The notes: generated by a model from the sequence alone, not told the origin. A stretch of 64,000 nucleotides of DNA from Dehalococcoidia bacterium (GCA_011174815.1 DUFF01000023.1:368-64367); one strand, 5' to 3'; positions 28,493 to 54,491 are shown, counted from the stretch's first letter. Made by a program: numbers and translations.

Positions 28493-28845
28493 GGGGACGC
28501 GTGGTTTCGACAGGGGAAGTAGGCTACAGAGTTGCAGGCTGAGGTGCCATCACCCTCACAAAACAGGTGGCAAAAAGATAAACGGCGAACCTGAAGTCGT
28601 TTACGCAGCTTAAAACTTAGCTGCACATCCAACTCGACCTCTCTCCAACGGGTCGGGATTGGGTGACGCAAAGTTGGGGTGCCGCTGCCGGACGTCGATA
28701 AAGGCAGCGAAAGAAAAATCGACTGGTCTGGTTGAACTCGGTCAGCAGAGGCCAGCCAGATGAGAAAAAAGAGTTGGCTAAGCCTGTAGCATACTCTGGG
28801 TCGCTTCTTCTGGACGGGGAGTTCGACTCTCCCCCGTCTCCACCA
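28493..28845 (+). ncRNA. ssrA: tmRNA (transfer-messenger RNA, SsrA)
   Basis: The 5' end is GGGGACGCGTGGTTTCGACAGGGG. The 3' end is GGGAG-TTCGACT-CTCCC-CCGTCTCC-ACCA, that is T-arm, acceptor 3' strand and CCA. The acceptor stem GGGGACG/CGTCTCC includes the G3:U pair. An internal tag frame ...GGC GAA CCT GAA GTC GTT TAC GCA GCT TAA (28584-28613) has its stop codon in the loop of the hairpin GCAGCT-TAAAACTT-AGCTGC. The gene lies directly downstream of smpB. Confidence 0.92.
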
Positions 28846-30406
28846 GAAACACAGATGAGCCTCCAAGTGGCTCATTGAGGATACGAATCTTAGACCCAGC
28901 ATGGGTCACCGCCACCTGGAAGATCGGTCTGAAGGGTGGCTTTGGTTTTATAGCGACTATCGATTTCGTCTGTTTGGCATCCACATACACCGCATCAAGC
29001 ATACCGAGAAGCAGTTTTCTTTTCTCTTCAATATTAGCTTGAATCCACAGCTTTGGCAGATTCAGGATGAGTTTCCCCGCCTCTTCGGCAGCATCTGCTG
29101 CTGGCACCACCAGTGATTCCAGTTCCATCTCCAAGAGCTTCTTCTGGCGGTGGTATTCTTCATCGGGGAACACACCGTCTATATATGCTCTTGCCATTCT
29201 CCTTAGTTTCTCCTGTGCCGCCCGGCGCTTCTTACTGACCTGATAAACATCATCTTTCAAACTGATAATAGCAAGCACCTCTTCCAGCCATTGAGGACCT
29301 AATTCTATCGCTTCTATCAGACTAGATACCTGCTCGTCCAACGTCTTGCAGGTAATTGAGCCTCCGCCATGACAGAGCCCCTGACTCCTTGAAGCCTTAT
29401 GCTCCCGGTAAAATGGTTTCCCACTCTTGTAAGTCTGTGCCCACATAGGCATTCCGCAGTAGGCACACCTGACTATTCCTTTCAGCAGGTAATGCCTTTC
29501 TGGTCTAACCTGAAGGGTCTCAGAGCGTCCACTGTTCTTCTTCAGCATCATCTGTACCGTCTCAAAAAGGCTTTCGCTGATTAGCGCCTGGTGGATCCCG
29601 GGAAGGAGCTTGTCGCGGTGTGTGATTTTCCCAGCATAGAAATGGTTATGTAATATACCTCTTACCGATGCCGTGGTGAATAGCCTGGGACCAGCAGTGA
29701 GGTTCCCATCAGGCCCGGGCATCTTCTTCGTGTTCCGTGTCCTGAATCCCTGCTCATTGAGCCATGCGGCAAGTTGGCTCAAGGTAGTCGTCCCGGTAGC
29801 GTAGCGCCTGAATAACTCTGTTACTGCACGGCTTTCTTTATCATGGATATGTACGCCACCAGGATGTTCATGCTCACAGATGCGCTTCTTTTCCCCCCTC
29901 TCCCCTTTCACCCAGCATGACTCATAACCGAAGGGTATCCCGCCGGTATGCTTTCCCTCAGCGGCACGCTGGGCAAGTCCTTTACTTACATGATTGGCAA
30001 GAGCACCGGAGAAGTATTCTGCAAATGAGCCCAGCATCTGTGTGAATAGCCTACCCTGTGGCGTGGAGTAATCTATCTGCTCAGAAATTGAAACGAAAGA
30101 AACGTTGGCCTTCGCCAGAATAGAGAAGGACTCCAGCATCACCCGCTGGTTCCGCGACCACCTGTCCAGGGTGTGAGTAACGACGGTATCGAATTGCTGT
30201 TTGGCCGCGTCTTCAAGTAGCTGGCGGAATACCGGGCGCCGGGATATGCTCTCTACATGGGCAGACTTCCCTTCTTCCCGATAGATTTTAACCGCTTCCC
30301 ACCCTCGATTCTTACAAAGTTCTTTGAATAGCCTCTCCTGAGCATCTAGTGAATGCCCGTCTACCTGTGAAATTGAAGATACCCTGAGATAAGCAACGGC
30401 TCTCAT
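28778..30406 (-). CDS. large serine recombinase (island integrase candidate)
   Basis: 542 aa. MRAVAYLRVSSISQVDGHSLDAQ is the resolvase catalytic domain with the nucleophile Ser. A recombinase domain, a zinc ribbon (CAYCGMPMWAQ...CHGGGSITC) and a coiled-coil region follow. The last ~23 codons are antisense to the tmRNA 3' end. Confidence 0.9.
   Translation of the reverse strand: MRAVAYLRVSSISQVDGHSLDAQERLFKELCKNRGWEAVKIYREEGKSAHVESISRRPVFRQLLEDAAKQQFDTVVTHTLDRWSRNQRVMLESFSILAKANVSFVSISEQIDYSTPQGRLFTQMLGSFAEYFSGALANHVSKGLAQRAAEGKHTGGIPFGYESCWVKGERGEKKRICEHEHPGGVHIHDKESRAVTELFRRYATGTTTLSQLAAWLNEQGFRTRNTKKMPGPDGNLTAGPRLFTTASVRGILHNHFYAGKITHRDKLLPGIHQALISESLFETVQMMLKKNSGRSETLQVRPERHYLLKGIVRCAYCGMPMWAQTYKSGKPFYREHKASRSQGLCHGGGSITCKTLDEQVSSLIEAIELGPQWLEEVLAIISLKDDVYQVSKKRRAAQEKLRRMARAYIDGVFPDEEYHRQKKLLEMELESLVVPAADAAEEAGKLILNLPKLWIQANIEEKRKLLLGMLDAVYVDAKQTKSIVAIKPKPPFRPIFQVAVTHAGSKIRILNEPLGGSSVFLVETGESRTPRPEEATQSMLQA
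28818..28849 (+). repeat. attL: left copy of a perfect 32-nt direct repeat (tmRNA 3' end GGAGTTCGACTCTCCCCCGTCTCCACCAGAAA)
   Basis: The identical 32-mer recurs at 54424-54455. Sequence diverges on both sides of both copies. Confidence 0.9.
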
Positions 30407-30606
30407 TTTCCCACCTCTTTCCGGGAAGCAACGGCAAGGGCAATCTCGGCCAAGGTATCCAGAAAGTGTTTTACCATTAGCTCATCGACCTCGCTCGTCT
30501 CCCCCGTTTGTGTGGCGGACAGTGTATACGAAGCGTGTATACCCGTCAACACGTCTGGGCCGTTATTTTCATTGCTGCCCGGCACTTCCATCTTTATCCC
30601 CGGCAT
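30403..30606 (-). CDS. small hypothetical protein between the two recombinase genes (possible directionality/accessory factor)
   Basis: This 67-aa ORF has a 4-nt stop/start overlap with the large recombinase gene. Its start overlaps the resolvase gene end, so an internal start at 30591 is possible. I recognise no motif. Confidence 0.3.
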   Translation of the reverse strand: MPGIKMEVPGSNENNGPDVLTGIHASYTLSATQTGETSEVDELMVKHFLDTLAEIALAVASRKEVGK

Positions 30607-31198
30607 CGATGAGCCTTTTCAGGGTCGCATAGCCAATGTTCAACTCTCTGGCTGCCTGGCAACGCGACACCTGGCCGTGCTCAAGTCGCTCCAAAATACC
30701 TCCAAAACGGCGTTTGAACCCTCGCCTATCCGTTACCCTTGGCCTGCCGATTTTGTGTCCCTGTTTCCTTGCCCTTTCCATGCCCGCTTTTACTCTTTCC
30801 CGGAGAATGCCTCTTTCCAGCTGGGCATAGGCAACCGTGATGTAATAAAGGGCTTCGCCAAATGGCGAAGTTGTGTCCAGCCAAGGTTCGGAATATGACC
30901 TGAGACCTACACCCCACGTTTTCAATCTCTCCAGTGTCGTGGCAGCATCAAGAACAGACCTGAAGGCTCTGTCCATGCGCCAGACGAGGAGAAGGTCAAA
31001 GCGCCTCTTGCTGGCATCATCCAGCAGTTCCCGCCAGGCTGTGCGGTGGAGAAGGTCGGTGGCCGGGGCATGATCCACAAACTCTACATAGGTCTCCCAC
31101 TCCTGGGCCTTTACGAATTCACGCATAGGAATAAGCTGAGTAAACGGATCCTGGTCCTTATCAGTAGTAGATACACGGGCATAGAGACAGACCTTCAT
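30569..31198 (-). CDS. small serine recombinase (resolvase/invertase type) with C-terminal HTH
   Basis: MKVCLYARVSTTDKDQD contains the catalytic Ser. LLLVWRMDRAFRS, GLRSYSEPWLDT and YAQLERGILRERVKAGMERARKQGHKIGRP follow, then the HTH AARELNIGYATLKRLI. Confidence 0.88.
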   Translation of the reverse strand: MKVCLYARVSTTDKDQDPFTQLIPMREFVKAQEWETYVEFVDHAPATDLLHRTAWRELLDDASKRRFDLLLVWRMDRAFRSVLDAATTLERLKTWGVGLRSYSEPWLDTTSPFGEALYYITVAYAQLERGILRERVKAGMERARKQGHKIGRPRVTDRRGFKRRFGGILERLEHGQVSRCQAARELNIGYATLKRLIDAGDKDGSAGQQ

Positions 31199-32067
31199 GG
31201 ATTTCCTTCTTTGCGTCTGAAGATTTTATCCAGGAGCGACCGCTTCTCCCCAAGCTGCCTTGACAGAGTGTCAATTTCGTCTCTGGCTTCTTTGATGGCC
31301 TGCTCAAGGATAGCCAGTTCTACCCACCCCATACGCTTTTGGATTTTTACAATTCTATCGGCGAGTTCCTCTTCTCTGGCAACCAGCCCTCGCTCTTTAG
31401 CCGAGATATCCCTGACTTTCGCCTCGTGTGTGGCTATTGCAGCTTCAAGCGACTTCTTCCGCTCTTCCAGAGACGGAATGGACCTTATCTTCCTTGATAG
31501 ATTACGGCACTCTTTTTGTAGTTTGTCCACCTTAGCAGCCTGTTCTTTGAGCTTGTTTGCTTCTGATATGAGATAAGGTAACTGCGAGGGTTTATTCCTT
31601 TCTTCTTTTACATAGTTAAGAAGCTCACGTTCCTTGATCCTCAGCTTGACTATATCCTTCCATTCTTTCTCCAGTGCCTTGATCCTTTCAGGTAGGTCTT
31701 GGAAATACTTGATGGAAGATTCCAGCTTTTCGGCGAGCTCTTCACATCTTACTGTTATTGCCTTCCTCATCTCTTCCAGCCTTCCACGATCGAGGATGAA
31801 CCGGTTCTTGCCGTGCGTCATGGCGGTGCCTATACCCATACCAGCGAAGACCTGTCCGGTGAATGAGGCAGAGACTTCTATGCCGTACTCTCTGATCGCT
31901 CTTTCGGTTATCTGGCTTGCCGTAGCCCGTGTGGTCTCTTCGATGGACATGAGACAGGCAGCCTGAACGAGGGCAAGCTGTACCTTGAGTTCCCGAAGCC
32001 CGTTGCTGGCTGAATTGCCTTTAAGCATGTTCAACATGCGCTCATCAATCTGTCTGTTTAAAACCAT
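31195..32067 (-). CDS. hypothetical coiled-coil protein
   Basis: 290 aa. The C-terminal two thirds are rich in heptad-like charged repeats (KALEKEWKDIVKLRIKERELL...). It has a 4-nt overlap with the resolvase start. Confidence 0.5.
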   Translation of the reverse strand: MVLNRQIDERMLNMLKGNSASNGLRELKVQLALVQAACLMSIEETTRATASQITERAIREYGIEVSASFTGQVFAGMGIGTAMTHGKNRFILDRGRLEEMRKAITVRCEELAEKLESSIKYFQDLPERIKALEKEWKDIVKLRIKERELLNYVKEERNKPSQLPYLISEANKLKEQAAKVDKLQKECRNLSRKIRSIPSLEERKKSLEAAIATHEAKVRDISAKERGLVAREEELADRIVKIQKRMGWVELAILEQAIKEARDEIDTLSRQLGEKRSLLDKIFRRKEGNP

Positions 32068-32091
32068 CTTGATATCTTCCCTATACTAGTA

Positions 32092-32325
32092 CTATTGTAA
32101 ACGCCTTTTTCGCTCGTCTCTCACTGTACCCATCCCCGTACCACTACCCTTCGATTCAATTTCATGGAATACTCTGTTCACATATTCCTGATCTGTGATG
32201 AAACCTCTAAAATGCCTTCCGTCTTTCGGACATTTGAGCATGATGAATGACTTATTCGATTTACGCCCTCTCGCTATTCTCACAGATAGCGGGTTTGAAC
32301 ATATAGGGCAGTTTATCTCTTTCAT
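32092..32325 (-). CDS. small zinc-ribbon protein
   Basis: 77 aa with CPICSN...CPKDG, a four-Cys-type ribbon. It has a 4-nt overlap with the upstream ParB-like gene. Confidence 0.5.
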   Translation of the reverse strand: MKEINCPICSNPLSVRIARGRKSNKSFIMLKCPKDGRHFRGFITDQEYVNRVFHEIESKGSGTGMGTVRDERKRRLQ

Positions 32326-32954
32326 TCTTCCTTCACGTTCTCCAGGTAGAATCTACAGAGCAGATAGACCGCATTTCCGCGGGTATTTGGGTTGTCGAAA
32401 GAATCATCTTTTACCCTTGGTAGTATCCTGCTAACTGCCTCTTCAACCAGTTCCAGCTGTTTGTAAGTGAACTGTAACTGCATGTGCTTTAACTTGGCAG
32501 CCTGTGCCTGCTCCCATGCCTCAAGGTGCTGAGCGATATCAGTATGTGTGAAGGAAGAGAGAGTCCTTAAACTGTAGGCGGTTTCGGGCAGCAGAGAAAG
32601 TACTTCATTCTCCGGTATCGAAGCGAGGATGCTTCTCAGCAGTTCACCTTTGAGAGCTAGATCATCTTCACCACGGAGACCATTGAGAGCCTGTGCTAAT
32701 AGCATCGCTTCATCGTCATTCAGATTGACTACCACACAGGGAACGGTTTGTGATTTAAGGTCGCTGATAATCCTGAAACGTTGGTTCCCGGATAGTACCT
32801 CATAAGCTCCATTCTTGGGTCTCACCACCAGAGGCTCAACGAGACCATAGCGTACCAGGCTTTCCTTGAGTCGCTCCTGCATGGACTCGTCCATCTGGTT
32901 CGGGTTCCAAGGAGCTTCATGAAGCTGGTCAGGCGAGATTTCAACTATCTTCAT
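32322..32954 (-). CDS. ParB N-terminal (ParB-like nuclease) domain protein
   Basis: APWNPNQMDESMQERLKESLVRYGLVEPLVVRPKNGAYEVLSGNQRFRI matches the ParB/Srx-fold N-terminal domain pattern (NPN..., G-x-x-R box). Confidence 0.75.
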   Translation of the reverse strand: MKIVEISPDQLHEAPWNPNQMDESMQERLKESLVRYGLVEPLVVRPKNGAYEVLSGNQRFRIISDLKSQTVPCVVVNLNDDEAMLLAQALNGLRGEDDLALKGELLRSILASIPENEVLSLLPETAYSLRTLSSFTHTDIAQHLEAWEQAQAAKLKHMQLQFTYKQLELVEEAVSRILPRVKDDSFDNPNTRGNAVYLLCRFYLENVKEE

Positions 32955-33006: not shown

Positions 33007-33726
33007 TTATTGCATACCATACCCCCATACCATACCCTCTTCCTTCTTGGGATATGGAAGCTCTTTAACAGTTAAATCGGGTCTCAGCGACTTATCCAGC
33101 AAGTAGATATACCTGTGCTTACGTGGCTGAGGAATGACTTTCACCCTGGTCCCGCATGATTCGAAGTGCTTTATAGAATGAGTGCCATAGCTGTGACTTA
33201 AGCTTCTGGAATGCCTTACCTTGCCATCTCCCAGATCGAACATGGGCATCGCCTCACTTAGTCCCGTATAGAGCCACCCGGTAGCCTGGTATATCGTCCC
33301 CATGTGTCCCTGAGAGGGATCAGCATAGCTCACCAGGAATTTAACCTTTGTGTGTTTCTTCAAGGCTCTGAGGCATATGCTTATTACCCTTGATTCCGAG
33401 TTGGAAGGTAATTCATCAGATAGCCAGAGTCTGGTTAAAGTCAGGCAGTCTTCAGGCGTTGTTCCCGAAACAAGCTGGTAAGCATTAGCCGGGCCTGATC
33501 CAAAGGCAATAGCCCCTGATAGTCTTCCATTCACCAGTGCACCGAATACCAGCTTGGTGCCACCGGGCATACTGTGAAGGTAATGGTTCTTGACTATCAG
33601 CCTCCTGGCAGCTATGAAGGGGATGGGTTGCACCCGGATGGAGTGGAGCGCCGTGCTGGGACTCGGACCCGCTCCTGCCCCCTGGACAGGGACCGTGCTT
33701 ACCCTTACACTAACGGCGCCAGTCAT
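33007..33726 (-). CDS. GNAT-fold protein resembling the phage Mom-like / prophage acyltransferase family (candidate DNA-base modification enzyme)
   Basis: AARRLIVKNHYLHSMPGGTKLVFGALVNGRLSGAIAFG...LTRLWLSDELPSNSESRVISICLRAL...LVSYADPSQGHMGTIYQATGWLYTG matches, from memory, the pattern of proteins annotated as Mom-family adenine-modification or GNAT proteins in prophages. I did not verify this by search. Confidence 0.4.
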   Translation of the reverse strand: MTGAVSVRVSTVPVQGAGAGPSPSTALHSIRVQPIPFIAARRLIVKNHYLHSMPGGTKLVFGALVNGRLSGAIAFGSGPANAYQLVSGTTPEDCLTLTRLWLSDELPSNSESRVISICLRALKKHTKVKFLVSYADPSQGHMGTIYQATGWLYTGLSEAMPMFDLGDGKVRHSRSLSHSYGTHSIKHFESCGTRVKVIPQPRKHRYIYLLDKSLRPDLTVKELPYPKKEEGMVWGYGMQ

Positions 33727-34079
33727 TCATCATCCTCCGTGTATTCGGGATCCAGAAGGATTTCCTTTAGCATCCAGCGTGCGTATTCTTGCCGTTTTGT
33801 ATCTTTAGCCTGGATGCTCTGCCTAAGTATGTTCCTCCACTCCGGGATACTGGTTCTTCTCCACTCTTCCAGTAACCAGCATTCCGATTCATTCCTAAGC
33901 TGACGACGAAGTTCCTGCAATATAAACTGTTTCGCTTCTTTCAGGTCAGCTATAATATCATCAGGTAAGGGTTGTGGTGCTTGCACCTTGAACCGGTCAT
34001 TCAGATGAATAAATATTGCACCTAAAACCCGACACCTTTCCATCAAATCCACCACATTCCTCATATCTCCATCTCCCAC
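33723..34079 (-). CDS. hypothetical protein
   Basis: This 118-aa ORF overlaps the primase gene end by 19 nt and the next gene start by 4 nt, so it looks translationally coupled. I recognise no motif. Confidence 0.45.
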   Translation of the reverse strand: MGDGDMRNVVDLMERCRVLGAIFIHLNDRFKVQAPQPLPDDIIADLKEAKQFILQELRRQLRNESECWLLEEWRRTSIPEWRNILRQSIQAKDTKRQEYARWMLKEILLDPEYTEDDE

Positions 34080-36088
34080 TGCTGTCCCTCTTTAAATACG
34101 AAAACTTCTTCGTTTCCCTCTCTTCCCGGGGTTTTATCCGCAACATCCGCAACATTAGCTTCAGGATAGCTTTGAGAATTATCCGCAACATCTGGTACTT
34201 CAGGCACGGTTTGTTGCGGATATTTTGGAGCCCTTTCGCAAAGCTGAGCCGTAGCTGCGTGTTGCGCTGTTGCGGATAGAAGGTCGGAATAAAGGTAACG
34301 CATCCAAACATCTTGAAAATCGGCCTGTCTGTAACCCTTTGGTGTTTTGTCATCGATGCGAATGGTCTGCGGTCGGATTCCATAGGGTTTTAGGAGACGA
34401 GCCAGACGGCGGGCGTTAATCGGCTTTCCGTGCATATCCCCCCAGGGCGATTCTTCTATTTGAATTAGTGCGCTTACCAGGTCAGCTGAAGAAATCTGTT
34501 CGGGATTTTCCTCAAATACTAATTTAATGTCAGCTAACAGCTGGACGCCCAGCGACTCGTCTTCCCGGTCTTCTCCAGTCATCAGGGCTCTGGCTGCCTC
34601 TCGGGCTCTACGGGGCCAGTCGTCACCGGCAGCATCAGCGATGGCAAGCAGAGGCTCCCAGCAGTCGGCGGCCCGGTCATCCAGTTCCTGCGGAATGTCA
34701 GGCTCGGTATCGGACAAAGGAGTTACGCTCAAGAATTGAATTATCTGCTGTCGTAACAGAGAAGCTTCCTGTTCCGCATTCCTTTGGCGGAACCTCTCGA
34801 TTTGCTCATTGGGAGCACGCCGTTTCAATACGATTGGAATGCTGCGGTCGGCTACTGTATCCGGCAGTTTCCCTATGCCTGCGATTGCTTTCGGACAGAA
34901 AGTTGATAGGTCCTTATACCCAATCGCCGCACCCTGCCCAACACAGAGCGAGGACTTACCACCTCGTCGGTAGCCTGTATTCAGAATTGACCTTAGCGCC
35001 TCTGCGTACTCTTTGTCGCTTTTGAAGGCAGCATCCGATTCATCGAGGAGCAATGTCGGGCGCTCTAAATCTACTTTCCTTGCCAGGACTGCGGGAGTCA
35101 CACGACCTGTGAACCACGGGCGGGCTACCAGCAATTCCAGAGTCTCCAATAGTCGAGTCTTCCCGGACCTCTTCTCAGGCGAGGTGATGTTAAGATAGGG
35201 TGTTGCCTCAGCTGCTTCCAGCGCATGGGTGTGCAGGACCCATAAGGCGATAGCTTCTGCCTGGCATTGTGATAGGACGACGAACCTCAAGATAAAGGCG
35301 ACGATAGCGTCGAGGACTTCATGACCACTTGAGGACTGCCAGGTTGGTGAGACTTCAGTTAGCCTCAGCAGGTCTTCAATGCTGTTTCCCTTTGCCAGCC
35401 AGTCATATATGTCCTGGCCTCGCTCAAGGTTCGGCAGGACGATGACTTTAACACAACTGGCTATACGGATGAGAGAAGTAGCAACCTGGTGAGCGTGAGC
35501 TTGCCCGGGTTCATCGTTATCAGAGAGAACAGCGACCTTTCTGCCCCGGAATGGCTGGCGATATTCTTCCCGCCATTTGCCCGCTCCCATCGGGGAGCAG
35601 GTCGCTGCCTGCCCTCGCTCTACAAGGGCGTCAGCATCCTTCTCACCTTCAACGAGGAATACCCATTTTCCTCCAGGTGTGGCAAGCAGTTGCGGGAGAC
35701 GATAGACGACACGCCGGACGCCTTCTATATTCCAAATCCAGTCGCCATTACCATCGGGCCTCCGCTGTCGAAAGGTCTTAGGCTCATAACGGGCGACCTG
35801 GAAGAGAAAGTTATTGTTTTCGTCCTGATAATCGTAGGTAGCGACGATGCGTTCAGGAATCTGCTTAGGCTTGGCCTCTTCAATGCCCAGCTTCTGCGCC
35901 AGCTTCTTTAGACCGCCTTTTTCCCCGCAGGCCATGCATTTGAAACCCGTTTGACGAAACCTTAAGTTTGGCTTTCTCCTATCGTCATGGAAGGGGCATA
36001 GGGCAGTATACCAGCCTGTTCTATCGGGACCGGAAACCTTATTTAGCCGACGAATAACCAAGTCGACAGAGATGCTCTTGGTATCCAT
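34061..36088 (-). CDS. DNA primase-like protein: CHC2 zinc finger + Toprim + DUF3631-like C-terminal domain
   Basis: CPFHDDRRKPNLRF...FKCMACGEKG is a CHC2 finger. VFLVEGEKDADAL...VAVLSDNDEPGQAHA is a Toprim (E...DxD). The C-terminal part (TLLLDESDAAFKSDKEYAEALRSILNTGYRRGG) resembles the DUF3631 family common in integrative elements. Confidence 0.8.
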   Translation of the reverse strand: MDTKSISVDLVIRRLNKVSGPDRTGWYTALCPFHDDRRKPNLRFRQTGFKCMACGEKGGLKKLAQKLGIEEAKPKQIPERIVATYDYQDENNNFLFQVARYEPKTFRQRRPDGNGDWIWNIEGVRRVVYRLPQLLATPGGKWVFLVEGEKDADALVERGQAATCSPMGAGKWREEYRQPFRGRKVAVLSDNDEPGQAHAHQVATSLIRIASCVKVIVLPNLERGQDIYDWLAKGNSIEDLLRLTEVSPTWQSSSGHEVLDAIVAFILRFVVLSQCQAEAIALWVLHTHALEAAEATPYLNITSPEKRSGKTRLLETLELLVARPWFTGRVTPAVLARKVDLERPTLLLDESDAAFKSDKEYAEALRSILNTGYRRGGKSSLCVGQGAAIGYKDLSTFCPKAIAGIGKLPDTVADRSIPIVLKRRAPNEQIERFRQRNAEQEASLLRQQIIQFLSVTPLSDTEPDIPQELDDRAADCWEPLLAIADAAGDDWPRRAREAARALMTGEDREDESLGVQLLADIKLVFEENPEQISSADLVSALIQIEESPWGDMHGKPINARRLARLLKPYGIRPQTIRIDDKTPKGYRQADFQDVWMRYLYSDLLSATAQHAATAQLCERAPKYPQQTVPEVPDVADNSQSYPEANVADVADKTPGREGNEEVFVFKEGQQWEMEI

Positions 36089-39984: not shown

Positions 39985-40017
39985 GTCCTCATGTGCTTTC
40001 TGTGGTAGGCAGGATTT

Positions 40018-43329: not shown

Positions 43330-43384
43330 CTTACCGGTAGGTGGAACTACCTCATATACTTTGTTTCCGACTCACTACCGGTTT

Positions 43385-45016: not shown

Positions 45017-45025
45017 TTCGTGTTT

Positions 45026-46009: not shown

Positions 46010-46184
46010 TTGTACATTGTCACCAATCGTTTTTGACTATTGACCTGCTCCGCCCTTGTAAAGGAACCGAGATTAGCTTCGAACATTACCAGTATTTCTA
46101 TCGTGTCCAGAGCTTGAGTCCTTAAATCCTGAAGTATCCAACAATCTCGGTACTGGCAGCTGTGAGCTTGCCGTTTGTTTGCTT

Positions 46185-47150
46185 CTAATCACGCCCTTTA
46201 GTCGATTTTGTGGATGAAATCATCTCCCAGATAAACGGGTTCTTCCTACGAATAAAGAAATCGAAACTTCCAGCCGCCCTTGCATAAATTTCAAGTATAA
46301 TACTCACAAAAGTCCACGCAATAGATTTGAAGCTAAGGCTTGTACATCGAGGTATCAGTTTTAGCAATCTCAGACAATTGAGGCTTGCTACCCGATAGTT
46401 CGATGTTTTCATCAGGTGAAGATGGCCAACGTATATCCGGCGTCTCTGCTTTACAAAGTCCGCTACCGTTTCAGGTCCCTTGTTGTACACTATTGCTTCT
46501 GGAACATATCGCAGTGAGTAACCCTTCTTCCTTATTGCTGCCTCAATTGCTGCTTCGTCGACAGCGGTATCTTCAGGAATAAAATCAACTATGTTTCTGA
46601 ACGCTATGTATTCTCCCAGTCTTGGCTCGATTAATGATAATTCATGGTTCATGTCCCATATAAGTCTGCTAACAAACCCCATTAATGTAGTTTGATCATT
46701 AACTGGAATCGGACGTCCGCCGGCCATTCCCACAATAGGGTCGAAGAAGACACTACTCAAAGATTCGCAACTTGTTTCCGTTAGTCTAGTGTCAGCACTA
46801 ACAAGAATGCAGATATCACCTCGTGAAGCTCTTAGGAAGAGATTAACTGCAGCTGCCTTGCCTCTACGTTTAGCTTCTGTAATAAGGTGTATTCTTTGAT
46901 CACCGTCTTGGAAGTGCCTGACTATATCCTCGGTTCCGTCACAACAGGCAGAGGAGACAACTACGATCTGAACAATTTCTAGTTTGTGTAGCACTTGGTT
47001 TTGGATTGACATCAAGAGGTGTCCGATATTCTGCTCTTCATTGTACGCACAGATTCCAATACTAGCTGTAATTCTTCTGTCATTTTGTCCCTCGCTGGTC
47101 ACAGCCGATCTCTCTTCTTGTTGAGCCTCAACTCGTTGGATCTGGAACAT
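46185..47150 (-). CDS. family 2 glycosyltransferase
   Basis: Track ORF 46185..47192. The ATG at 47150 is preceded by GGAAGGA. ASIGICAYNEEQNIGHLL, VVVSSACCDGTEDIV and ILVSADT are GT2-like motifs. Confidence 0.75.
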   Translation of the reverse strand: MFQIQRVEAQQEERSAVTSEGQNDRRITASIGICAYNEEQNIGHLLMSIQNQVLHKLEIVQIVVVSSACCDGTEDIVRHFQDGDQRIHLITEAKRRGKAAAVNLFLRASRGDICILVSADTRLTETSCESLSSVFFDPIVGMAGGRPIPVNDQTTLMGFVSRLIWDMNHELSLIEPRLGEYIAFRNIVDFIPEDTAVDEAAIEAAIRKKGYSLRYVPEAIVYNKGPETVADFVKQRRRIYVGHLHLMKTSNYRVASLNCLRLLKLIPRCTSLSFKSIAWTFVSIILEIYARAAGSFDFFIRRKNPFIWEMISSTKSTKGRD

Positions 47151-47167
47151 CTTACATATTCCTTCCC

Positions 47168-48535: not shown

Positions 48536-48608
48536 TGTTTATTCCTCGGAGAGAGTGAAAGTATGAATATTGTATTTAATATTCCCTCCTAGCGAAATAT
48601 TAGCCAAA

Positions 48609-49859
48609 TCAATTATGGCGATGGAAAAAAGGAAGCATCGAAAATGGAGACAGTACAGCACATGCAAGCAGCACGTTGACCATTTGCCCAATGCCAGAAT
48701 GGAATGCAACTATCAGAAAAATCTCGAGAAGCATTACCCCTAGCAGAGAGAAGGCCACTTTTGTTTGATTCAATGACAGCAAGTAACTCATTGCCAAAAA
48801 CGAAACAGCTAGGAAACCCATTGCCAGTCCGTATGTTGCAAGATATGTTCCAATAAGGGGATACTTGCCATCAAAGAGAAACTGAGCTAAATGATGAGGA
48901 AATAGAGCATAGACCACCACCACACTGCCGGCAATTAGAACAGTTAGTATCATAGCCCTCGCAAATGGACCCCGATGGTCCCCGCTACGTTCAAAGAGTT
49001 CTGATGTCTTGGGAAACATGGCTGCTGCTATACCTACGGGAGCATAGAAAGCGACTCTACCCAGAACAGACATTGCTGAGTAGTTACCGGCATCAGTAGC
49101 AGTCAGATAATGTTTCGCGAGGATCACGTCAATGTTAATGAGCACAGTTACGCACGAGATTGCTAGTAGAGTAAGGCCAGCGTAAGAACGAACATCGGGA
49201 AGTGACACACGCTCATTCCTAACGGATAATAGATTGCGGAGAGGTAAAAACGTAAAAATCAAAACTAGGAAGAACGCAACAGGAATCGCAGTTAGAGCAC
49301 CCTGAACTCCAAAACCACACTGGACAAGAAAAACACCGAGTACTAACCTGAGAAATCCCGCCAACACCTGACTTGACCCGAGGGGCACAAACTTTTGTAG
49401 TCCCTGCAGAGTTCCCAAGTTCACTGAGAGCATAAGAACGATGAAAATAGCCGAAAATACAATAATGGGATAGATAATGCTATCCAGCTTGAGAAATCGT
49501 GAAAGCAAAGGACTAAGTAAGGCCAGAATAGCAAAACCACCTATCCCGGCAAGCAGCATTTTTGTGAAAAAAAGGCGCCATACATAGTTCACCCCCCCAA
49601 GTCTACCCTCAGCTACAAGTTTGGAAGTGAATTTAGCTACTGCGATTGTAATAGCCTGAGAAACGACTATTAAGATCACAAACAGCGAGGTCAGGCTGAA
49701 AAGAACGCCATACTCTTGGGTTGGCAATAACACGCCCATGGCTAACTGGTAGAGATAGTTAAAAAGACCACCCAAAATGCCAAAGGCCACCATGATGAGA
49801 CCGTGCTTAGTCATATCGTCAATCATCCCGCCTAGCTTAATAAGGTTAAACTTGTTCAC
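48609..49859 (-). CDS. Wzx-like oligosaccharide/polysaccharide flippase (MOP superfamily)
   Basis: 416 aa with about 12 helices. The composition is typical of polysaccharide biosynthesis (PST family) flippases. Its position heads the glycosylation cluster. Confidence 0.65.
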   Translation of the reverse strand: MNKFNLIKLGGMIDDMTKHGLIMVAFGILGGLFNYLYQLAMGVLLPTQEYGVLFSLTSLFVILIVVSQAITIAVAKFTSKLVAEGRLGGVNYVWRLFFTKMLLAGIGGFAILALLSPLLSRFLKLDSIIYPIIVFSAIFIVLMLSVNLGTLQGLQKFVPLGSSQVLAGFLRLVLGVFLVQCGFGVQGALTAIPVAFFLVLIFTFLPLRNLLSVRNERVSLPDVRSYAGLTLLAISCVTVLINIDVILAKHYLTATDAGNYSAMSVLGRVAFYAPVGIAAAMFPKTSELFERSGDHRGPFARAMILTVLIAGSVVVVYALFPHHLAQFLFDGKYPLIGTYLATYGLAMGFLAVSFLAMSYLLSLNQTKVAFSLLGVMLLEIFLIVAFHSGIGQMVNVLLACAVLSPFSMLPFFHRHN

Positions 49860-50517: not shown

Positions 50518-50940
50518 TTAACGGAAGACTATGACTTTTATAAATATTAATGGGAAAACGAACAGTTCTAATTGAAGAACAAAGAGTATCCAAGCCGAAC
50601 TTATTAAAAAGATTTCATAAGTTATGAAATAAAACAAGATTACAAGAATCACAATGCAGCCAATTACTGCTGACCAAGACAAAAATGTCCGGCAACTTCT
50701 TATGCTTTTATCAGAAACTCGTAATTCCTTAACTAAGATCTCATAATTCCAGATCACCTTAATAAGAAGAATAACTGAAAAACCAACAAGAGCAGTTGAA
50801 GCGATGAGTAGTGAGCGTAAAAGGCTGATTTTATACTCTATCCCTAATGGCCAATTTATGAAAACTGCAATTAAAGCCCACCCTCCTATCAAGATAAAGG
50901 CAAGAAGTATTTTCAACAATATGGACATTGTATTTTTCAC
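50518..50940 (-). CDS. small polytopic membrane protein, paralog of 51015..51623
   Basis: 140 aa with 4 hydrophobic helices. It aligns along its whole length with the C-terminal ~140 aa of the neighbouring ORF. The DNA is very AT-rich. Confidence 0.55.
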   Translation of the reverse strand: MKNTMSILLKILLAFILIGGWALIAVFINWPLGIEYKISLLRSLLIASTALVGFSVILLIKVIWNYEILVKELRVSDKSIRSCRTFLSWSAVIGCIVILVILFYFITYEIFLISSAWILFVLQLELFVFPLIFIKVIVFR

Positions 50941-51014
50941 TTTAACTTCCGATATTCTACTACATCGGGCTACTACATAAATCTAAATATTATGTGACCG
51001 ATCATCTAATGTAA

Positions 51015-51623
51015 TCAATGTAAAACAATAATTCTTGCAAAGAGCAGAGGGATAATTAATAAGGCTAATTGAAGTATAAAAAATACCCAGGCCATATAAA
51101 CTATATTAATCTCATAAATTACGAAATAGACCATGATAGCTAGAATCGTAAAACAACCAGAAGTTACTGATTGGCATATCAACACCCTTAATTTCTTTGT
51201 TCTGATATCTGATATCCCAAGCTTTACGTTAGACCCACTGTTATTGCGAACCATTTCAGGTAGAATAATAACAACAAAGCCAGCTAGTGCCGATGTAGCA
51301 ATAAGAACTGACTGCAATAGTTCAACTTTCATCATTATTTCTACGGGCCAATCACCAAAGAATATGATGGATGCAAACAATCCTGCAACAATCACAACGA
51401 TTACTAATGGTAAATTAGTTATTATTGACCGTATGATAGCTTTATTGTATTTTACGAATAAAGCCAGAAGGATAATACCTGCCAATGCTGATAAGATATT
51501 AGATACAAGTTGTAATAGCTTGACCTCCCCCTCTCTTTCTGGAGGTGGACCTGCAAAAAAAAGTAGTGCTCCTATGGTAATTGTAATAACAATCGCTAGT
51601 ATAATCCTTCCAGTATTTTTCAT
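51015..51623 (-). CDS. polytopic membrane protein, paralog of 50518..50940 with a ~60-aa N-terminal extension
   Basis: 202 aa. Compare GDWPVEIMMKVELLQSVLIATSALAGF...YFVIYEINIVYMAWVFFILQLALLIIPLLFARIIVLH with INWPLGIEYKISLLRSLLIASTALVGF...YFITYEIFLISSAWILFVLQLELFVFPLIFIKVIVFR. Confidence 0.55.
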   Translation of the reverse strand: MKNTGRIILAIVITITIGALLFFAGPPPEREGEVKLLQLVSNILSALAGIILLALFVKYNKAIIRSIITNLPLVIVVIVAGLFASIIFFGDWPVEIMMKVELLQSVLIATSALAGFVVIILPEMVRNNSGSNVKLGISDIRTKKLRVLICQSVTSGCFTILAIMVYFVIYEINIVYMAWVFFILQLALLIIPLLFARIIVLH

Positions 51624-51867
51624 TCTTGCCTTTACATTCGGTTTTGCCTAAATATTATAGCTCCTAACACCGATATAACCATAGTCAATTATTGACGTTT
51701 TTAAAAGATGAGGGAAATAATATTTTGGAGATGTATTATGGTTAATTATTTCAAAAGAATGAGACATTCGATATTCTTCCCAGATACTCAGAAACAATTG
51801 ACTAAAGTTCAATTTATTTTGATGATTCGTTCGAAAACTTATAGGACCTGTCCATCCAGTCAGTCAA

Positions 51868-52503
51868 TCAATATAACCTGCCGTTCTGCAGGAACTTGAT
51901 TGTAATTCTGCGGTTTAGAAGTTCCCACGCGAACAACACGAATGCTATAAAGCCGATTATCTCTGGTATATAAACTGCCGGTTCATTTAATAAAACATAG
52001 AAGACTTTGCTTAAGTAATCGAAAGTTTCAGTCTTTTCAAAGCCAAAACCTAAAATTGGCCAGAACAGTGTTTTGGGTGTCTGCCACATCTTATCCAATA
52101 ATAGGTGAAAAACCGTGCCTATAGATAGAGCCAATCCCCATGTTTTACCTGAATATCCCCTAATAAAAAGTCCAGCAACCATTAACAATATGAGAAACAG
52201 CAAGGTATGGGAGAATATCCTTCCGTTACTGTAAGTTTCTTGGAACAAGAATATCCCAACCGGCTTATCAATAATATCGGGTAGCATTGACCCTACAAGA
52301 AGAAATCTTATATCCACGTGGTTTGCTAGCGACCTGAAAAACGACATCCTATTATCTGGCTGGATTTTTAAATGAGAACTGTCACTGGTCGGGGAGCTTC
52401 CTCCTACCCTATCTTCTGTAATTCTATTGCGAAGCTTATCTGTCAGCCTAAATCCGAGGGCAGTTGCAGCAAGCGTTATTCCAATATGACCAAACAATAA
52501 CAT
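51868..52503 (-). CDS. membrane-bound metal-dependent hydrolase (YdjM/DUF457-like)
   Basis: Track ORF 51868..52569. The ATG at 52503 gives MLLFGHIGITLAA, the typical family opening. LPDIIDKP and SHT...HLLLD are conserved His/Asp motifs. Confidence 0.6.
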   Translation of the reverse strand: MLLFGHIGITLAATALGFRLTDKLRNRITEDRVGGSSPTSDSSHLKIQPDNRMSFFRSLANHVDIRFLLVGSMLPDIIDKPVGIFLFQETYSNGRIFSHTLLFLILLMVAGLFIRGYSGKTWGLALSIGTVFHLLLDKMWQTPKTLFWPILGFGFEKTETFDYLSKVFYVLLNEPAVYIPEIIGFIAFVLFAWELLNRRITIKFLQNGRLY

Positions 52504-52569
52504 TTGATTCCCGCTTTTGGCATAATAACAGACAATACAATTTGCGACAATTAGTGAAACTAGAAACAA

Positions 52570-54100
52570 TTAATATAAAGCGCCCTTTTTGCTATGCAGG
52601 GCCGCACTATGTATCTTTTGTGAACTTTTTTCTATATTTACCTTGATATTTATATAATTCCCTGTTTCTTAGACAGTGATAAATAATTTCTGCTAGCTTT
52701 CCCATGGTGCTAACTAAAGCTTTTATTCTGACTTTACCTTGGTTAACCTGCCTTGAATAGTAATCTTTAAAATCATTGTCAGGTGCATTTCTTTTGATGC
52801 AATTCCTGCAAACCTGAAATAATACACGACGTCCATGCTTGCTGCCTTCTTTCCCTCGCCTACTATACGATCTATTACCAGATCGCGTTGATCTGCTATA
52901 AATACCAAGGGCTTTTTTGAACTTTTTCTTGTTTGACCAGTTATCAATATTTTTCACAGTTGCTATGATAGTAGCTGCTGCTATTTCGCCAAGGAAGGGA
53001 AATGAATACAAAATTTCAGTGTAGGGATGCTCAGCGAGTTGTTTGCGAAGCATTAGTGTAATAGTTTCACGCTTCTTGACCAGATCCAGTCTTAGAATGC
53101 CAAGCTCTTTTATTAACCACTTATACTCATTGCTTGGCACTCCAATACTATTAACTGCAAATTGCATAATATCTTCTCTGTCATTCTTAGAGAGACCTCT
53201 AACGTTCTCTAAACCACGACTATCGACGATGTCCCTTGGAGTCGGATAATGAGGGATAATTCTAAGAAGTTTATTGAAGTATCTAGCTTCCCCCTCGGGA
53301 AAGGTTGCAATGAGTAACTGATGCAGTCTATTGGTCATTTGATTGAGCAATTTGACGAATTGCAGCCTTTGTAGAATTAGTGAGTTCAAGACAGCAGCTC
53401 TAGAACCTAGCTCATATTGTATCAATGAGATACGAAAAGATAAGCTGTGTGTATCTCTCAAATACAGCAAATACGCAGTACCAATTGAATCGATAATATC
53501 GCTTTTGTTTTCCTCATCAAGTAAACGCTCTCTTGCAGATTTTACCGCCTTTGACTCCAAATAATAAACATCATATCCTGCAGTCAACAAATAATATACT
53601 ATTGGCTCTGAGTAGTGGCCGCCAGTATGATCAACGGCAATAGTAACCTCGCTTGTATCGCAAACTTGCGACCTGATGGAATCATCAAGATTTTTAAAGC
53701 TATTGTATTCATTCTTTACGACTATTGGCCTAATACTTCCCCATACTGTACTAGTTTGCTGAAACAAGCCCACCGGTACAATTGCTGCTTTATGCTCTCT
53801 CGAATGGATATCAATTCCAACATATAGTTTCTTCTTTGTAGGTTTCATAATGCTTCTAAGGGGCAGGCAATTTGTGCCGCTCAACCCAAACTATCAAGGA
53901 TCTTTCTACTTCATTTTGACTGTTCGACCAATATTCTGACCGATTTAAGCAGCAACAATGTCTTGACCACTATCGATACAGGCCTCTGATCTCTTTCCTA
54001 GCCTATTGATAAGTTGAAAAAAGAACGACCATGAGTATCATTGATCTCAGCCTGCCCCACATAGAATTATTGGATGATACTTATATTCTGTAGACTTATA
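52570..54100 (-). mobile_element. IS110-family insertion sequence (boundaries approximate)
   Basis: It contains the IS110 transposase gene and about 240 nt of non-coding 5' end. I saw no terminal inverted repeats, as expected for IS110. The ends are not mapped. Confidence 0.55.
52607..53848 (-). CDS. IS110-family DEDD transposase/recombinase
   Basis: LYVGIDIHSREHKAAIV is the first Asp of the DEDD RuvC-like domain. The C-terminal Transposase_20-like region is FPFLGEIAAATIIATVKNIDNWSNKKKFKKALGIYSRSTRSG. The ATG at 53848 (MKPTKKKLYVGID) is more plausible than the TTG at 53884. Confidence 0.85.
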   Translation of the reverse strand: MKPTKKKLYVGIDIHSREHKAAIVPVGLFQQTSTVWGSIRPIVVKNEYNSFKNLDDSIRSQVCDTSEVTIAVDHTGGHYSEPIVYYLLTAGYDVYYLESKAVKSARERLLDEENKSDIIDSIGTAYLLYLRDTHSLSFRISLIQYELGSRAAVLNSLILQRLQFVKLLNQMTNRLHQLLIATFPEGEARYFNKLLRIIPHYPTPRDIVDSRGLENVRGLSKNDREDIMQFAVNSIGVPSNEYKWLIKELGILRLDLVKKRETITLMLRKQLAEHPYTEILYSFPFLGEIAAATIIATVKNIDNWSNKKKFKKALGIYSRSTRSGNRSYSRRGKEGSKHGRRVLFQVCRNCIKRNAPDNDFKDYYSRQVNQGKVRIKALVSTMGKLAEIIYHCLRNRELYKYQGKYRKKFTKDT

Positions 54101-54149
54101 GTCTACATTGTAATACTTTTAATGTCAAATATCTTTGATTATTTTTTTA

Positions 54150-54371
54150 ATGAATAATATACAGCGAAAATTGGGGAAAAGAATTAAAGATCTGAGACTT
54201 AAAAGACAGTTGTCTCAAGAAAAGCTAGCGTTCGAATCTAAAATGCATCGCACTTATATTGGTAGTATTGAAAGAGGAGAGCGAAATCCATCGCTAAAAA
54301 ACATCGAAGCAATTGCCAACGCGCTGGGTGTTACATTGTCAGACTTGTTTAGATTTGAAAATTGCGGTTAA
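54150..54371 (+). CDS. XRE (Cro/CI)-family HTH transcriptional regulator
   Basis: LGKRIKDLRLKRQLSQEKLAFESKMHRTYIGSIERGERNPSLKNIEAIANALGV is a canonical HTH_3 domain. I preferred the ATG at 54150 over the TTG at 54135. Confidence 0.85.
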   Translation: MNNIQRKLGKRIKDLRLKRQLSQEKLAFESKMHRTYIGSIERGERNPSLKNIEAIANALGVTLSDLFRFENCG

Positions 54372-54423
54372 CCTGCCAACTAAATGTAGAGTCGATTACG
54401 TAAAGCAAAGAATTGTTTCAGGT

Positions 54424-54455
54424 GGAGTTCGACTCTCCCCCGTCTCCACCAGAAA
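54424..54455 (+). repeat. attR: right copy of the 32-nt direct repeat (orphan tmRNA 3' end)
   Basis: It is identical to 28818-28849. The upstream sequence (..TTTCAGGT) cannot complete the T-stem, so this copy is the displaced remnant. Confidence 0.9.
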
Positions 54456-54464
54456 ATCAGAAAC

Positions 54465-54491
54465 GCTAGCCTTTAATCGCTAGCATTTTTA
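54465..54491 (+). terminator. rho-independent terminator, probably the ancestral ssrA terminator now separated from the gene by the island
   Basis: The hairpin is GCTAGC (54465-54470), loop CTTTAATC, GCTAGC (54479-54484), followed by ATTTTT. It starts 10 nt after attR. Confidence 0.6.

Follow-up and report, generated by a model that had tools for sequence, protein, structure and literature searches.

A Dsi-Type Genomic Island with a Glycan-Biosynthesis Cluster and a Mom-Like Gene at the ssrA Locus of an Uncultured Dehalococcoidia Bacterium

The ssrA Locus and the Boundaries of the Island

We analysed a stretch of 64,000 nucleotides (nt), hereafter called the window, from a genome deposited as Dehalococcoidia bacterium (GCA_011174815.1, DUFF01000023.1:368-64367), in which a genomic island is inserted at the 3′ end of ssrA, the transfer-messenger RNA (tmRNA) gene. 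The left chromosomal flank ends with the host gene smpB (28007..28462, plus strand; Pfam SmpB, E 4e-58), the exact product of which is named 'SsrA-binding protein SmpB [Dehalococcoidia bacterium]', and smpB stands immediately upstream of an intact ssrA (28493..28845, plus strand). For the latter, ARAGORN reported the tag GEPEVVYAA, and the Rfam model RF00023 was matched over its full length, untruncated, at 164.8 bits against a threshold of 47 bits. The 3′ end of this complete tmRNA gene is the first copy of the 32-mer GGAGTTCGACTCTCCCCCGTCTCCACCAGAAA, which occurs in the whole window exactly twice, on the same strand and with zero mismatches, at 28818–28849 and 54424–54455. None of 100 shuffles of the window yielded any match to it, and a general repeat search returned it as the sole long direct repeat of the region. 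The two copies are spaced by 25,606 bp, and the repeat can be extended to 36 matches over 38 nt. Since no third copy or internal att site turned up in the window, even when a 17-nt core was searched for with up to three mismatches, the island is not an obvious tandem composite.

The copy at 28818..28849 constitutes the attL core, which starts in the T-arm of the tmRNA and reaches 4 nt beyond the CCA. The copy at 54424..54455, the attR core, is an orphan copy of the ssrA 3′ end, because the window contains no second tmRNA body; it is preceded by an island-borne arm, TTGTTTCAGGT (54413–54423), that is kept at orphan repeats across Dehalococcoidia. Directly beyond attR, at the start of the right chromosomal flank, a terminator scan located a GCTAGC hairpin (54465–54484) followed by the T-run ATTTTTAT. 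We regard this element (54465..54491, plus strand) as the displaced native ssrA terminator, given that it lies directly 3′ of the tmRNA gene in contigs with an empty site (see below). It follows the orphan copy only. After the functional copy there is only a hairpin at 28855–28875, which lacks a T-run on the plus strand and sits within the coding 3′ end of a large recombinase gene.

Base composition is atypical inside the island: the guanine-plus-cytosine (GC) fraction, about 0.56 in the flanks, is 0.50 in the integration module, 0.42 in the cargo and 0.36 at 50–53 kb. A separate low-GC stretch (0.44–0.45 versus about 0.56 nearby) occupies positions 1–4000 at the left edge of the window. Thus, what the original prediction had read from this locus holds, namely a 25.6-kb insertion bounded by a perfect 32-nt direct repeat, atypical composition inside it, a terminator after the orphan copy only, and a hairpin without a U-tract after the functional one. 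As for the orphan copy, which by that prediction lacks the 5′ T-stem partner, the tmRNA body is indeed missing, and the 'GGAG' of the 5′ T-stem strand is retained.

Genes of the Integration Module

All genes of the island except one are encoded on the minus strand, and those nearest to attL form a module that opens with two serine recombinase genes abutting the repeat. The first, dsiB (28778..30406), codes for a protein of 542 amino acids (aa) with the architecture of large serine integrases: resolvase catalytic, recombinase and zinc-ribbon domains (Pfam Resolvase, Recombinase and Zn_ribbon_recom). DsiB matches the TP901-1 and A118 integrase structures, carries an invariant catalytic motif Y6-R8-V9-S10 (Y-x-R-V-S) with S10 at the position of the serine nucleophile, and is 67% identical over 100% of its length to DsiB from the vcrABC island of Dehalococcoides mccartyi. 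We predict it to be an ssrA-specific integrase. Its open reading frame (ORF) runs across attL, so that the stop codon, at 28778, is located inside ssrA, 40 nt beyond the core. The second recombinase gene, dsiA (30569..31198), encodes a small serine recombinase of 209 aa (Pfam Resolvase; full-length match to a 'DNA invertase' of PHROGs) sharing 49% identity with its D. mccartyi counterpart.

Between the two lies a small conserved ORF of 67 aa (30403..30606), called as a gene in three same-species contigs (L011–L013) and having no Pfam match. ORFs of similar size hold the same position in D. mccartyi (62 aa; L025, 7820–8008) and in a further related locus (65 aa; L022, 4164–4361), and all of them have the motif EVD.L..F...LAE.A.AVA.R in common. 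This ORF, absent from the list of six module genes in the 2011 description of such islands (McMurdie et al. 2011, PMC3146451), is a candidate accessory or directionality factor.

Farther from attL, a coiled-coil protein of 290 aa (31195..32067) takes the place of the 'RecF-like' protein of D. mccartyi: it is 37% identical over 119 aa to that 150-aa protein, encoded at the same position, and otherwise gave only weak Rad50/SMC-like matches. It is followed by a small Cys-rich protein of 77 aa (32092..32325) that recurs in 44 related loci and is 65% identical to the product of a 59-aa Dehalococcoides ORF in the corresponding place, and by a ParB-N-domain protein of 210 aa (32322..32954; Pfam ParB_N, 61% identity to its Dehalococcoides counterpart). 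Next come a Mom-like gene, to which we return below, and an ORF for a hypothetical protein of 118 aa (33723..34079) with no family match and no homologue among the related loci. The module closes with a primase-like protein of 675 aa (34061..36088) that combines a CHC2 zinc finger, a Toprim domain and DUF3631 according to Pfam, matches the DNA primase and primase-helicase groups of PHROGs, and is 55% identical to a 699-aa Dehalococcoides protein. A hypothetical protein of 360 aa without any family match (36161..37243) separates the module from the cargo; in four independent assemblies its gene is linked both to the primase gene and to the first glycosyltransferase gene of the cargo, of the GT-C type.

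Domain searches covered all island ORFs of at least 70 aa for tyrosine integrases, and all large island ORFs (Pfam) together with the module (PHROGs) for relaxase, type IV secretion system, other secretion and capsid domains; none of these was found. Phage-type matches were limited to the integrase, ParB, Mom, primase and repressor. A prophage or phage satellite was rejected as an identity for the element, as the same searches returned no capsid, terminase or portal domain.

Combining these data, we consider it very likely that positions 28850–54455 constitute an integrative and probably mobilizable island of the Dehalococcoides 'ssrA-GI / Dsi' (VcrA-IME) family, residing in an uncultured Dehalococcoidia bacterium. 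A Dehalococcoidia-like host had been proposed from the sequence alone, and the class label in GenBank, 'Dehalococcoidia bacterium', agrees with it. So does the gene content with the earlier claims of recombinase genes abutting attL, of a missing tyrosine integrase and of the mechanism class known from Dehalococcoides ssrA islands, the DsiB orthologue being accompanied by a module that is syntenic throughout.

Site Specificity of the DsiB Family across Dehalococcoidia

Close relatives of DsiB number in the hundreds in metagenomes (65–82% identity), and where named, they bear the labels Chloroflexota or Dehalococcoidales. A scan of one genome per species (GTDB species representatives) gave 78 loci with a DsiB homologue. 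Nearly all of them bear labels of Dehalococcoidia or its subgroups (Dehalococcoidales, Dehalogenimonas), of the SAR202 cluster, or of unclassified Chloroflexota/Chloroflexi; a few are metagenome-assembled genomes labelled elsewhere in the phylum ('Chloroflexia', Thermoflexus). Among the 61 loci with an informative 3′ end, a complete tmRNA gene was present no more than 200 nt from the end of the DsiB homologue in 35 and an orphan ssrA 3′ fragment in 16. Genes for the Zn-ORF, ParB and Mom accompany DsiB in some 41–44 loci.

Such consistency bears on the question of which enzyme made the insertion. One might suppose that the serine recombinases are bystanders and that the duplication and insertion were the work of another enzyme, be it the IS110 transposase or a tyrosine integrase that escaped detection. 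Tyrosine integrases classically target ssrA (Williams 2003, as cited in later work), and an IS110-family gene is situated about 540 bp from attR. However, no tyrosine recombinase domain was found in the island ORFs of at least 70 aa, the IS110 gene is internal rather than placed at a boundary, and DsiB homologues are locked to the ssrA core in 51 of the 61 loci, with an ORF that overlaps the core. We thus find the participation of another agent highly improbable. Overall, the Dsi-type islands emerge as a class-wide vehicle of strain-level variation in Dehalococcoidia, and the tmRNA-targeting serine-recombinase elements, familiar as carriers that spread dehalogenases for vinyl chloride and dichloropropane, also occur beyond the organohalide respirers.

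Occupied, Empty and Variant Sites in Metagenomes

Contigs encoding the exact SmpB and the exact oxidoreductase of the right flank numbered about 30; they stem from same-species assemblies of ENA, JGI, NCBI and Logan and are 99.5–99.9% identical. The attL junction was reproduced in three of them (L011–L013), attR in many, and the junction between module and cargo in four assemblies; both att junctions were identical in independent ENA, JGI and NCBI assemblies. A contig 99.9% identical to the locus has been deposited under the name 'Coxiella sp. DG_40' (GCA_001302865.1, LIZW01000005.1, protein KPJ68381.1); it was probably mis-binned.

The original prediction had proposed to look for an empty site, with the tmRNA gene followed directly by position 54456 onward, and exactly this arrangement was present in three same-species metagenome assemblies. 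In contigs L014, L015 and L016, smpB and the full tmRNA gene are joined to the right flank including the GCTAGC terminator, and the left flank of 10.8 kb is 99.91–99.93% identical to that of the window. All three contigs stop 109–129 nt past the core, as expected for a de Bruijn contig built with k=141 at a branch of the graph. The empty-site junction is real, because a repeat of 32 nt cannot yield false 141-mers. Moreover, partner contigs from the same samples (L006, L009) have the first base of the repeat as their own first base, from which it follows that two left-hand contexts coexist there. In one sample, ERZ27275847, both the interior of the island (L106) and the empty site (L016) were assembled.

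In other samples, the site is occupied by variant islands. In contig L004 (1900–1990), the same site carries a variant whose end reads ...TTCAGGTGGAGACCA up to the junction and ACTCTCCCCCGTCTCCACCA after it, with a Dehalococcoides-type motif fitting at 12 of 15 positions, a 20-nt repeat, a diverged right end and a different IS110-like gene. Another contig (L001, 449–1700) contains a variant of the low-GC segment with the YdjM-family gene at 79% identity, plus an extra helix-turn-helix (HTH) gene of 142 aa.

These data also bear on the assembly. As the window was taken from a metagenome-assembled genome, and the repeat is a point where many contigs end, a chimeric second 32-mer or a chimeric join of module and cargo deserves consideration. 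We give it almost no credence, as attL, attR and the module–cargo junction each recur in several independent ENA, JGI, NCBI and Logan assemblies, and a 32-nt repeat cannot create false joins at k=141. In this way, each of the three grounds on which the original prediction might have fallen turned out the other way: the insertion is polymorphic, the repeat is genuine and the recombinase is related to the known ssrA-island integrases. Because empty, occupied and variant alleles coexist with near-identical flanks in public metagenomes, the locus represents a ready natural system for studying the gain and loss of islands.

Reconstruction of attP and a Proposed Mechanism

Joining both ends of the island (window positions 54409–54455 and 28850–28856) rebuilds an attP of about 46 bp with 15-nt arms around a 16-nt spacer. 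The arms, TTGTTTCAGGTGGAG (the left one, also written GTGTTTCAGGTGGAG) and CTCCACCAGAAACAC, match as inverted repeats at 13 of 15 positions, or 14 of 15 in the family consensus, compared with only 7 of 15 for attB in the same register. These arms are kept class-wide at orphan repeats and dsiB-proximal ends, with the consensus GTGTTTCAGG.GGAG ... CCA.AAACAC. The left arm corresponds to the 'TTCAG...' motif of the 2011 description: Dehalococcoides ssrA islands insert in the T-loop region, and their attR repeat has directly upstream of it a motif of 15 bp, TTCAGRSMGMRKCCA (PMC3146451). In the window, TTCAG stands in the same register as that motif, 35 nt from the CCA end, with 11 of 15 positions fitting; the fit is incomplete because the attP of the window copies the tmRNA T-loop. 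The dyad centre of attP is a CT dinucleotide (28829–28830 and 54435–54436) located just 3′ of the T-loop and within the 20-nt repeat common to all variants; we take it as the probable point of crossover.

Such an arrangement induces us to propose the following scenario. DsiB would recombine the attP of the island with the 3′ end of the host tmRNA gene, which serves as attB. Because attP duplicates the tmRNA from its T-arm through the fourth nucleotide after the CCA, integration would rebuild an intact tmRNA gene at attL, the last ~16 nt of which would be supplied by the island, while the original ssrA 3′ end and its terminator would be left at attR, 25.6 kb away. As dsiB reads across the att core, its last codons should differ between the integrated and excised forms, although the change is trivial (542 aa integrated, 538 aa in the reconstructed excised form). 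The rest of the module (DsiA, the small ORF, the coiled-coil protein, the ParB-like protein, Mom with its tRNA-Gly-like gene, and the primase-like protein) may provide excision control, replication or maintenance of the circle, and protection from restriction; for DsiA, the 67-aa ORF and the ParB-like and primase-like proteins, we suggest such roles from their families. Since no transfer genes are present, transfer from cell to cell would have to come in trans, as was also concluded for the Dehalococcoides ssrA islands (McMurdie et al. 2011, PMC3146451). The glycan cluster, which might change the cell surface, and the IS110 element would then travel as cargo. Both recombination sites, the conserved attP of 46 bp and the attB in ssrA, are well defined, which makes DsiB a candidate site-specific integrase for the genetically intractable Dehalococcoidia.

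Several observations weigh against an island that moves in this manner. The circular (attP) junction of this particular island was not found when metagenome contigs were scanned for the exact 52-nt sequence. Four contigs did contain an exact 52-nt junction of the attP type; they belong to related islands, as their flanks are only 74–84% identical to the window, and could be tandem arrays or circles. Contigs encoding the HTH protein of the island showed attR contexts only and no attP junction, apart from one unexplained case: contig L124 (1849–2302) is identical to the island's right end and the first 24 nt of the repeat, after which ...GTCTCC gives way to CCATTCGTAG..., a continuation that corresponds neither to the host flank nor to sequence next to dsiB. 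A tandem partner, a secondary site and a chimera are all conceivable here. Furthermore, the empty-site alleles show that the insertion is polymorphic and are equally compatible with recent excision and with lineages that never acquired the island, and the position of the crossover is deduced from dyad symmetry. Finally, DsiA is absent from eight related loci in which DsiB, the Zn-ORF, ParB and Mom are intact next to ssrA (L032, L034, L035, L036, L038, L041, L042 and L059). Its absence from several intact modules makes a partnership of DsiA and DsiB doubtful and argues against an obligatory pairing of the CcrA/CcrB type.

Could the island then be a fixed, decaying remnant of a single Dsi-type integration that has since lost its mobility? 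The missing circular junction, the insertion of IS110 into the island and a tmRNA gene parted from its terminator might be taken in this sense. Yet every gene of the module, dsiB and dsiA included, is an intact ORF, and the two 32-nt copies agree perfectly. In addition, the same samples contain both empty and occupied alleles, whose flanks are 99.9% identical, and at least two island variants use the site. We judge a remnant to be quite unlikely and retain the interpretation of an integrative, probably mobilizable island.

Cargo and Its Place in the Family

The largest part of the island beyond the module is a 12-kb glycan-biosynthesis cluster (37825..49859, minus strand; GC about 0.42–0.45), recognized with Pfam and NCBIfam. 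It encodes a GT-C glycosyltransferase (AftD/MmpA-like), an NAD epimerase/dehydratase, a methyltransferase, a PMT_2-type GT-C glycosyltransferase and a 543-aa hypothetical protein, together with three GT2 glycosyltransferases, one of them as a fusion with a methyltransferase, and a polytopic membrane protein of 416 aa. According to Pfam, no reductive dehalogenase domain is encoded in the island, which bears out the earlier description of its cargo as surface glycosylation without rdhAB. This cluster of glycan or glycoconjugate genes probably alters the cell surface; it could hence change recognition by phages or grazers in an abundant uncultured sediment lineage. None of its genes was present in the 78 related loci. 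The right chromosomal flank (54592–64000) also contains polysaccharide-related genes (a pyruvyl transferase and two NAD epimerases/dehydratases), so the glycan cluster of the island adjoins a glycan locus of the host; possibly this is a coincidence of the position of ssrA.

Toward attR, the cluster gives way to a low-GC segment (0.36; 50518..52569, minus strand) that encodes a pair of small membrane proteins, paralogues of each other, along with a membrane protein of the YdjM family (Pfam YdjM). An IS110-family transposase gene follows inside the island (52607..53884, minus strand; Pfam DEDD_Tnp_IS110 and Transposase_20), and IS110 was found in every contig covering that part. At the right end stands a Cro/C1-type HTH regulator (54135..54371, plus strand; Pfam HTH_3, E 1e-17; a transcriptional repressor in PHROGs).

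To place this cargo among relatives, Pfam was run on 149 ORFs beyond mom from 28 related islands. Everything beyond mom was counted as cargo, a set that may include outside DNA and spurious ORFs; the primase gene of the window gave too few tblastn matches to serve as a delimiter. The ORFs were dominated by DNA methylases, genes of restriction or defence type (ResIII, XhoI, DndB, AAA_21/AAA_13) and transposases, with assorted metabolic genes besides, and no dehalogenase family was among the 25 commonest Pfam families. Non-dehalogenase cargo is the rule outside Dehalococcoides and Dehalogenimonas, and there the Dsi family may act largely as defence islands. Content other than rdh genes had already been reported in 2011, including CRISPR modules, many hypothetical proteins and a deep-sea fosmid (PMC3146451). 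With the glycan cluster, a new example joins this kind of cargo, carried by a mechanism described in the same year. Consequently, the extension of the known role of such elements that the original prediction saw in this island is modest, since cargo without rdh genes was on record and is usual in the 28-island census.

Mom and the Embedded tRNA-Gly-Like Element

The Mom-like gene of the module (33007..33726, minus strand) encodes a GNAT-family protein of 239 aa, predicted to be a DNA adenine-modifying enzyme (Pfam Mom, PF25680, E 2e-63) and 66% identical to the Dehalococcoides Mom. It aligns to the structure of Mu Mom (8BV8) with E 4e-16. For Mu Mom, it was demonstrated that glycine is transferred from Gly-tRNAGly to N6 of adenine in duplex DNA, and that R111 and S124 are essential; H58, Y59, D149, R151 and Y159 were likewise proposed for the active site, and recognition of the acceptor end of the tRNA was suggested as well (Silva et al. 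2026, PMC13219725). The island protein keeps H58, Y59, R111, S124, D149 and Y159, that is, six of the seven proposed active-site residues, R151 being replaced by Ser.

Within the same gene, in frame with codons 3–28 (nt 7–83 of the ORF), lies a tRNA-Gly-like element (33644..33720, minus strand) that folds into a cloverleaf with covariation across homologues. In 33 distinct homologues the acceptor stem is 99.6% paired and the T-arm 99.4% paired, the latter with a conserved bulged A; 12 pairs show double changes, and none of 500 shuffles reached the observed values. The cloverleaf as drawn also clearly beats versions in which the partner strands were slid by 1–3 columns. G1-C72, C2-G71, G3-C70, U73 and C74-C75 are invariant or nearly so, A76 is found in 31 of the 33 homologues, and the anticodon loop reads NCC; for comparison, the published determinants of bacterial GlyRS are G1-C72, C2-G71, U73, C35 and C36. 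A covariance model built on the element scores the element itself at 88.5 bits. Neither ARAGORN nor Rfam called it in the 5′ region of mom, and the single-sequence fold was a non-cloverleaf structure with an unremarkable z-score of −1.5, so that support for the cloverleaf is comparative only. The mom frame remains open through the element in 35 of 36 loci, the ATG standing a few to about 50 nt upstream. The RNA stems covary, and the overlapping peptide looked poorly conserved when compared by eye with the Dehalococcoides copy.

A link between Mom and tRNA-Gly also appears in a mobile element unrelated to the island. In the Microbacterium phage MenE (PQ362677.1, 29392–30651), the single member of its phage group that we inspected, a ParB-like nuclease and a Mom-like acetyltransferase are followed 33 nt downstream by a tRNA-Gly(ccc), which is the only tRNA and the only minus-strand feature of that genome; the covariance model of the island element matches it at 45.5 bits. 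Two weak tRNA-like matches occur right after the ParB–Mom pair of the Psychrobacter phage Y8A (L111, 2646–2787). The Mom genes of five other sampled phages have no adjacent tRNA, and hence the linkage is recurrent, not universal.

As Mu Mom uses Gly-tRNAGly, the embedded element may be a dedicated co-substrate gene for Mom. It is tempting to suppose that mom and the element together form a self-contained, tRNA-dependent DNA-hypermodification cassette that would momylate the excised island and protect it against restriction in a new host, a suggestion that we put forward tentatively and to which we give somewhat less than even weight. The island would then supply both a Mom-type glycyl-transferase and its own tRNAGly, possibly a non-proteinogenic one, as the bulged T-arm hints. 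A parallel is the non-proteinogenic tRNAGly serving Fem transferases in Staphylococcus. Our literature search found no publication tying the 'pseudo-tRNA' of 2011 to the Mom mechanism of 2026, and Silva et al. (PMC13219725) make no mention of tRNA genes by mom homologues, of Dehalococcoides or of genomic islands. If such a cassette exists, it would explain the 'pseudo-tRNA' of the Dehalococcoides ssrA islands, which has lacked an explanation since 2011, and would be the first mobile element with its own tRNA for DNA modification rather than translation. The link offers a concrete, testable function for a component of the module and concerns the whole family, not this island alone.

The Mom gene and its neighbours also raise a broader possibility, which extends the integrative-island interpretation rather than contradicting it. 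The element might be a replicative, virus- or satellite-like episome that, once excised, would replicate with its own primase-like protein and modify its DNA by Mom and tRNA-Gly, packaged or exported by a helper phage, by vesicles or by an unrecognised particle. Its primase (Toprim and DUF3631), the ParB-like protein, the Mom-like anti-restriction protein and the terminal Cro/C1 repressor all have matches in phage families, the ParB-Mom(-tRNAGly) cassette recurs in tailed phages, and the related VcrA-IME is circular, CRISPR-targeted and modestly enriched in a metavirome. On the other hand, Pfam searches of the large island ORFs and PHROGs searches of the module revealed no domain of a capsid, terminase, portal or pI-like ATPase, the virome enrichment of VcrA-IME is far below that of the true virus-like IME1 elements, and the primase-like gene has few tblastn matches in the wider family, where DUF3631 does not figure in the list of frequent Pfam families from the regions beyond mom. 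A virus-like lifestyle thus appears unlikely to us, if clearly less so than a decaying remnant, and we continue with the island as an integrative element of the Dsi family.

Comparison with Known Systems

Among the elements that resemble the island at first sight, IME1 of Dehalococcoides (Nesbo et al. 2026 preprint) is similar in size (about 20–28 kb), in its primase-helicase and in a terminal Cro/C1 HTH protein. It differs in using an XerCD-type tyrosine recombinase at tRNA genes and in having a pI-like ATPase, neither of which is found in the island. Identity with IME1 was rejected, since Pfam and PHROGs detected no tyrosine recombinase and no Zot/pI-like domain. The classical ssrA islands with tyrosine integrases have in common with ours the target gene and the restoration of its 3′ end by an island copy; in the window, however, the enzyme belongs to the serine class and the recombinase ORF itself spans the att core. 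SCCmec of Staphylococcus, an analogy drawn in 2011, likewise has a pair of serine recombinases (CcrAB), which insert a cargo cassette at the 3′ end of an essential gene present in one copy. Yet the homology is only distant, with an identity of about 22% reported in 2011, the target is rlmH/orfX, and DsiA of the window is of the small resolvase/invertase type and absent from several related islands. At the level of the cassette, the island resembles Mu Mom and phage MenE in the active-site residues kept (6/7), in the ParB-like gene preceding Mom and in the linked tRNA-Gly or tRNA-Gly-like gene. Unlike the tRNA gene of MenE, its tRNA-like gene overlaps the mom frame, and the T-arm is non-canonical in having a bulged A; in the protein, R151 of Mu Mom is replaced by Ser.

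Other counterparts come from deep-sea and Dehalogenimonas DNA. The deep-sea fosmid EU016565, noted by McMurdie et al. in 2011 and likened here by description, contains dsiB, dsiA, parB, mom with a tRNA-like locus, and an ssrA repeat in dsiB, although it is a partial element with neither a defined host site nor boundaries. The dcpA islands of Dehalogenimonas (PMC13390414) lie downstream of ssrA and are similar to the window in their direct repeats, their recombinase, ParB and primase genes and their low GC; they differ in their cargo, dcpAB, and in repeats of 11–25 bp. A Dehalogenimonas DsiB homologue next to the tmRNA gene (L043) is 63% identical to that of the window.

The nearest relatives are the ssrA islands of D. 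mccartyi, for which McMurdie et al. (PMC3146451) described a reverse-strand module next to attL that encodes DsiB (~540 aa), DsiA (~200 aa), a RecF-like protein (~150 aa) and a ParB-domain protein (~210 aa), Mom, whose gene includes a tRNA-Gly-like locus of 76 bp within its first 150 bp, and a ~700-aa protein with an N-terminal primase-type domain; dsiB always overlaps attL, its stop codon lying outside the island. One of these elements, VcrA-IME, has been reported both integrated and as a circular episome. In the vcrABC island (L025), the order is primase, Mom, ParB, small ORF, RecF-like, DsiA, small ORF, DsiB, tmRNA and smpB, and the window matches it gene for gene and in orientation, at identities that descend from 67% for DsiB through Mom, the Cys-rich protein, ParB, the primase-like protein and DsiA to 37%, over partial length, for the coiled-coil protein. 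The hosts are different: SmpB of the window is only 62% identical to that of D. mccartyi, and the bacterium represents another, uncultured Dehalococcoidia lineage. The island is also longer (25.6 kb versus about 12 kb for the vcrABC island), and glycan biosynthesis and IS110 stand in the place of rdhAB. The repeat measures 32 nt instead of 20 nt, as attP includes an additional 8 nt of the T-arm as well as 4 nt beyond the CCA, and it spans the 20-nt repeat of the Dehalococcoides type. Among the defining features of the Dsi family, the exceptions are the size of the 'RecF-like' gene (290 aa versus 150 aa) and the 15-nt motif on the attR side, which fits at 11 of 15 positions, though in the same register. 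What the two have in common is the ssrA 3′ target next to smpB, the direct repeat, dsiB reading over attL, the tRNA-Gly-like element in mom, the TTCAG register and low-GC cargo; with nearly all of the defining features thus present, we conclude that the island of the window belongs to the Dsi family.

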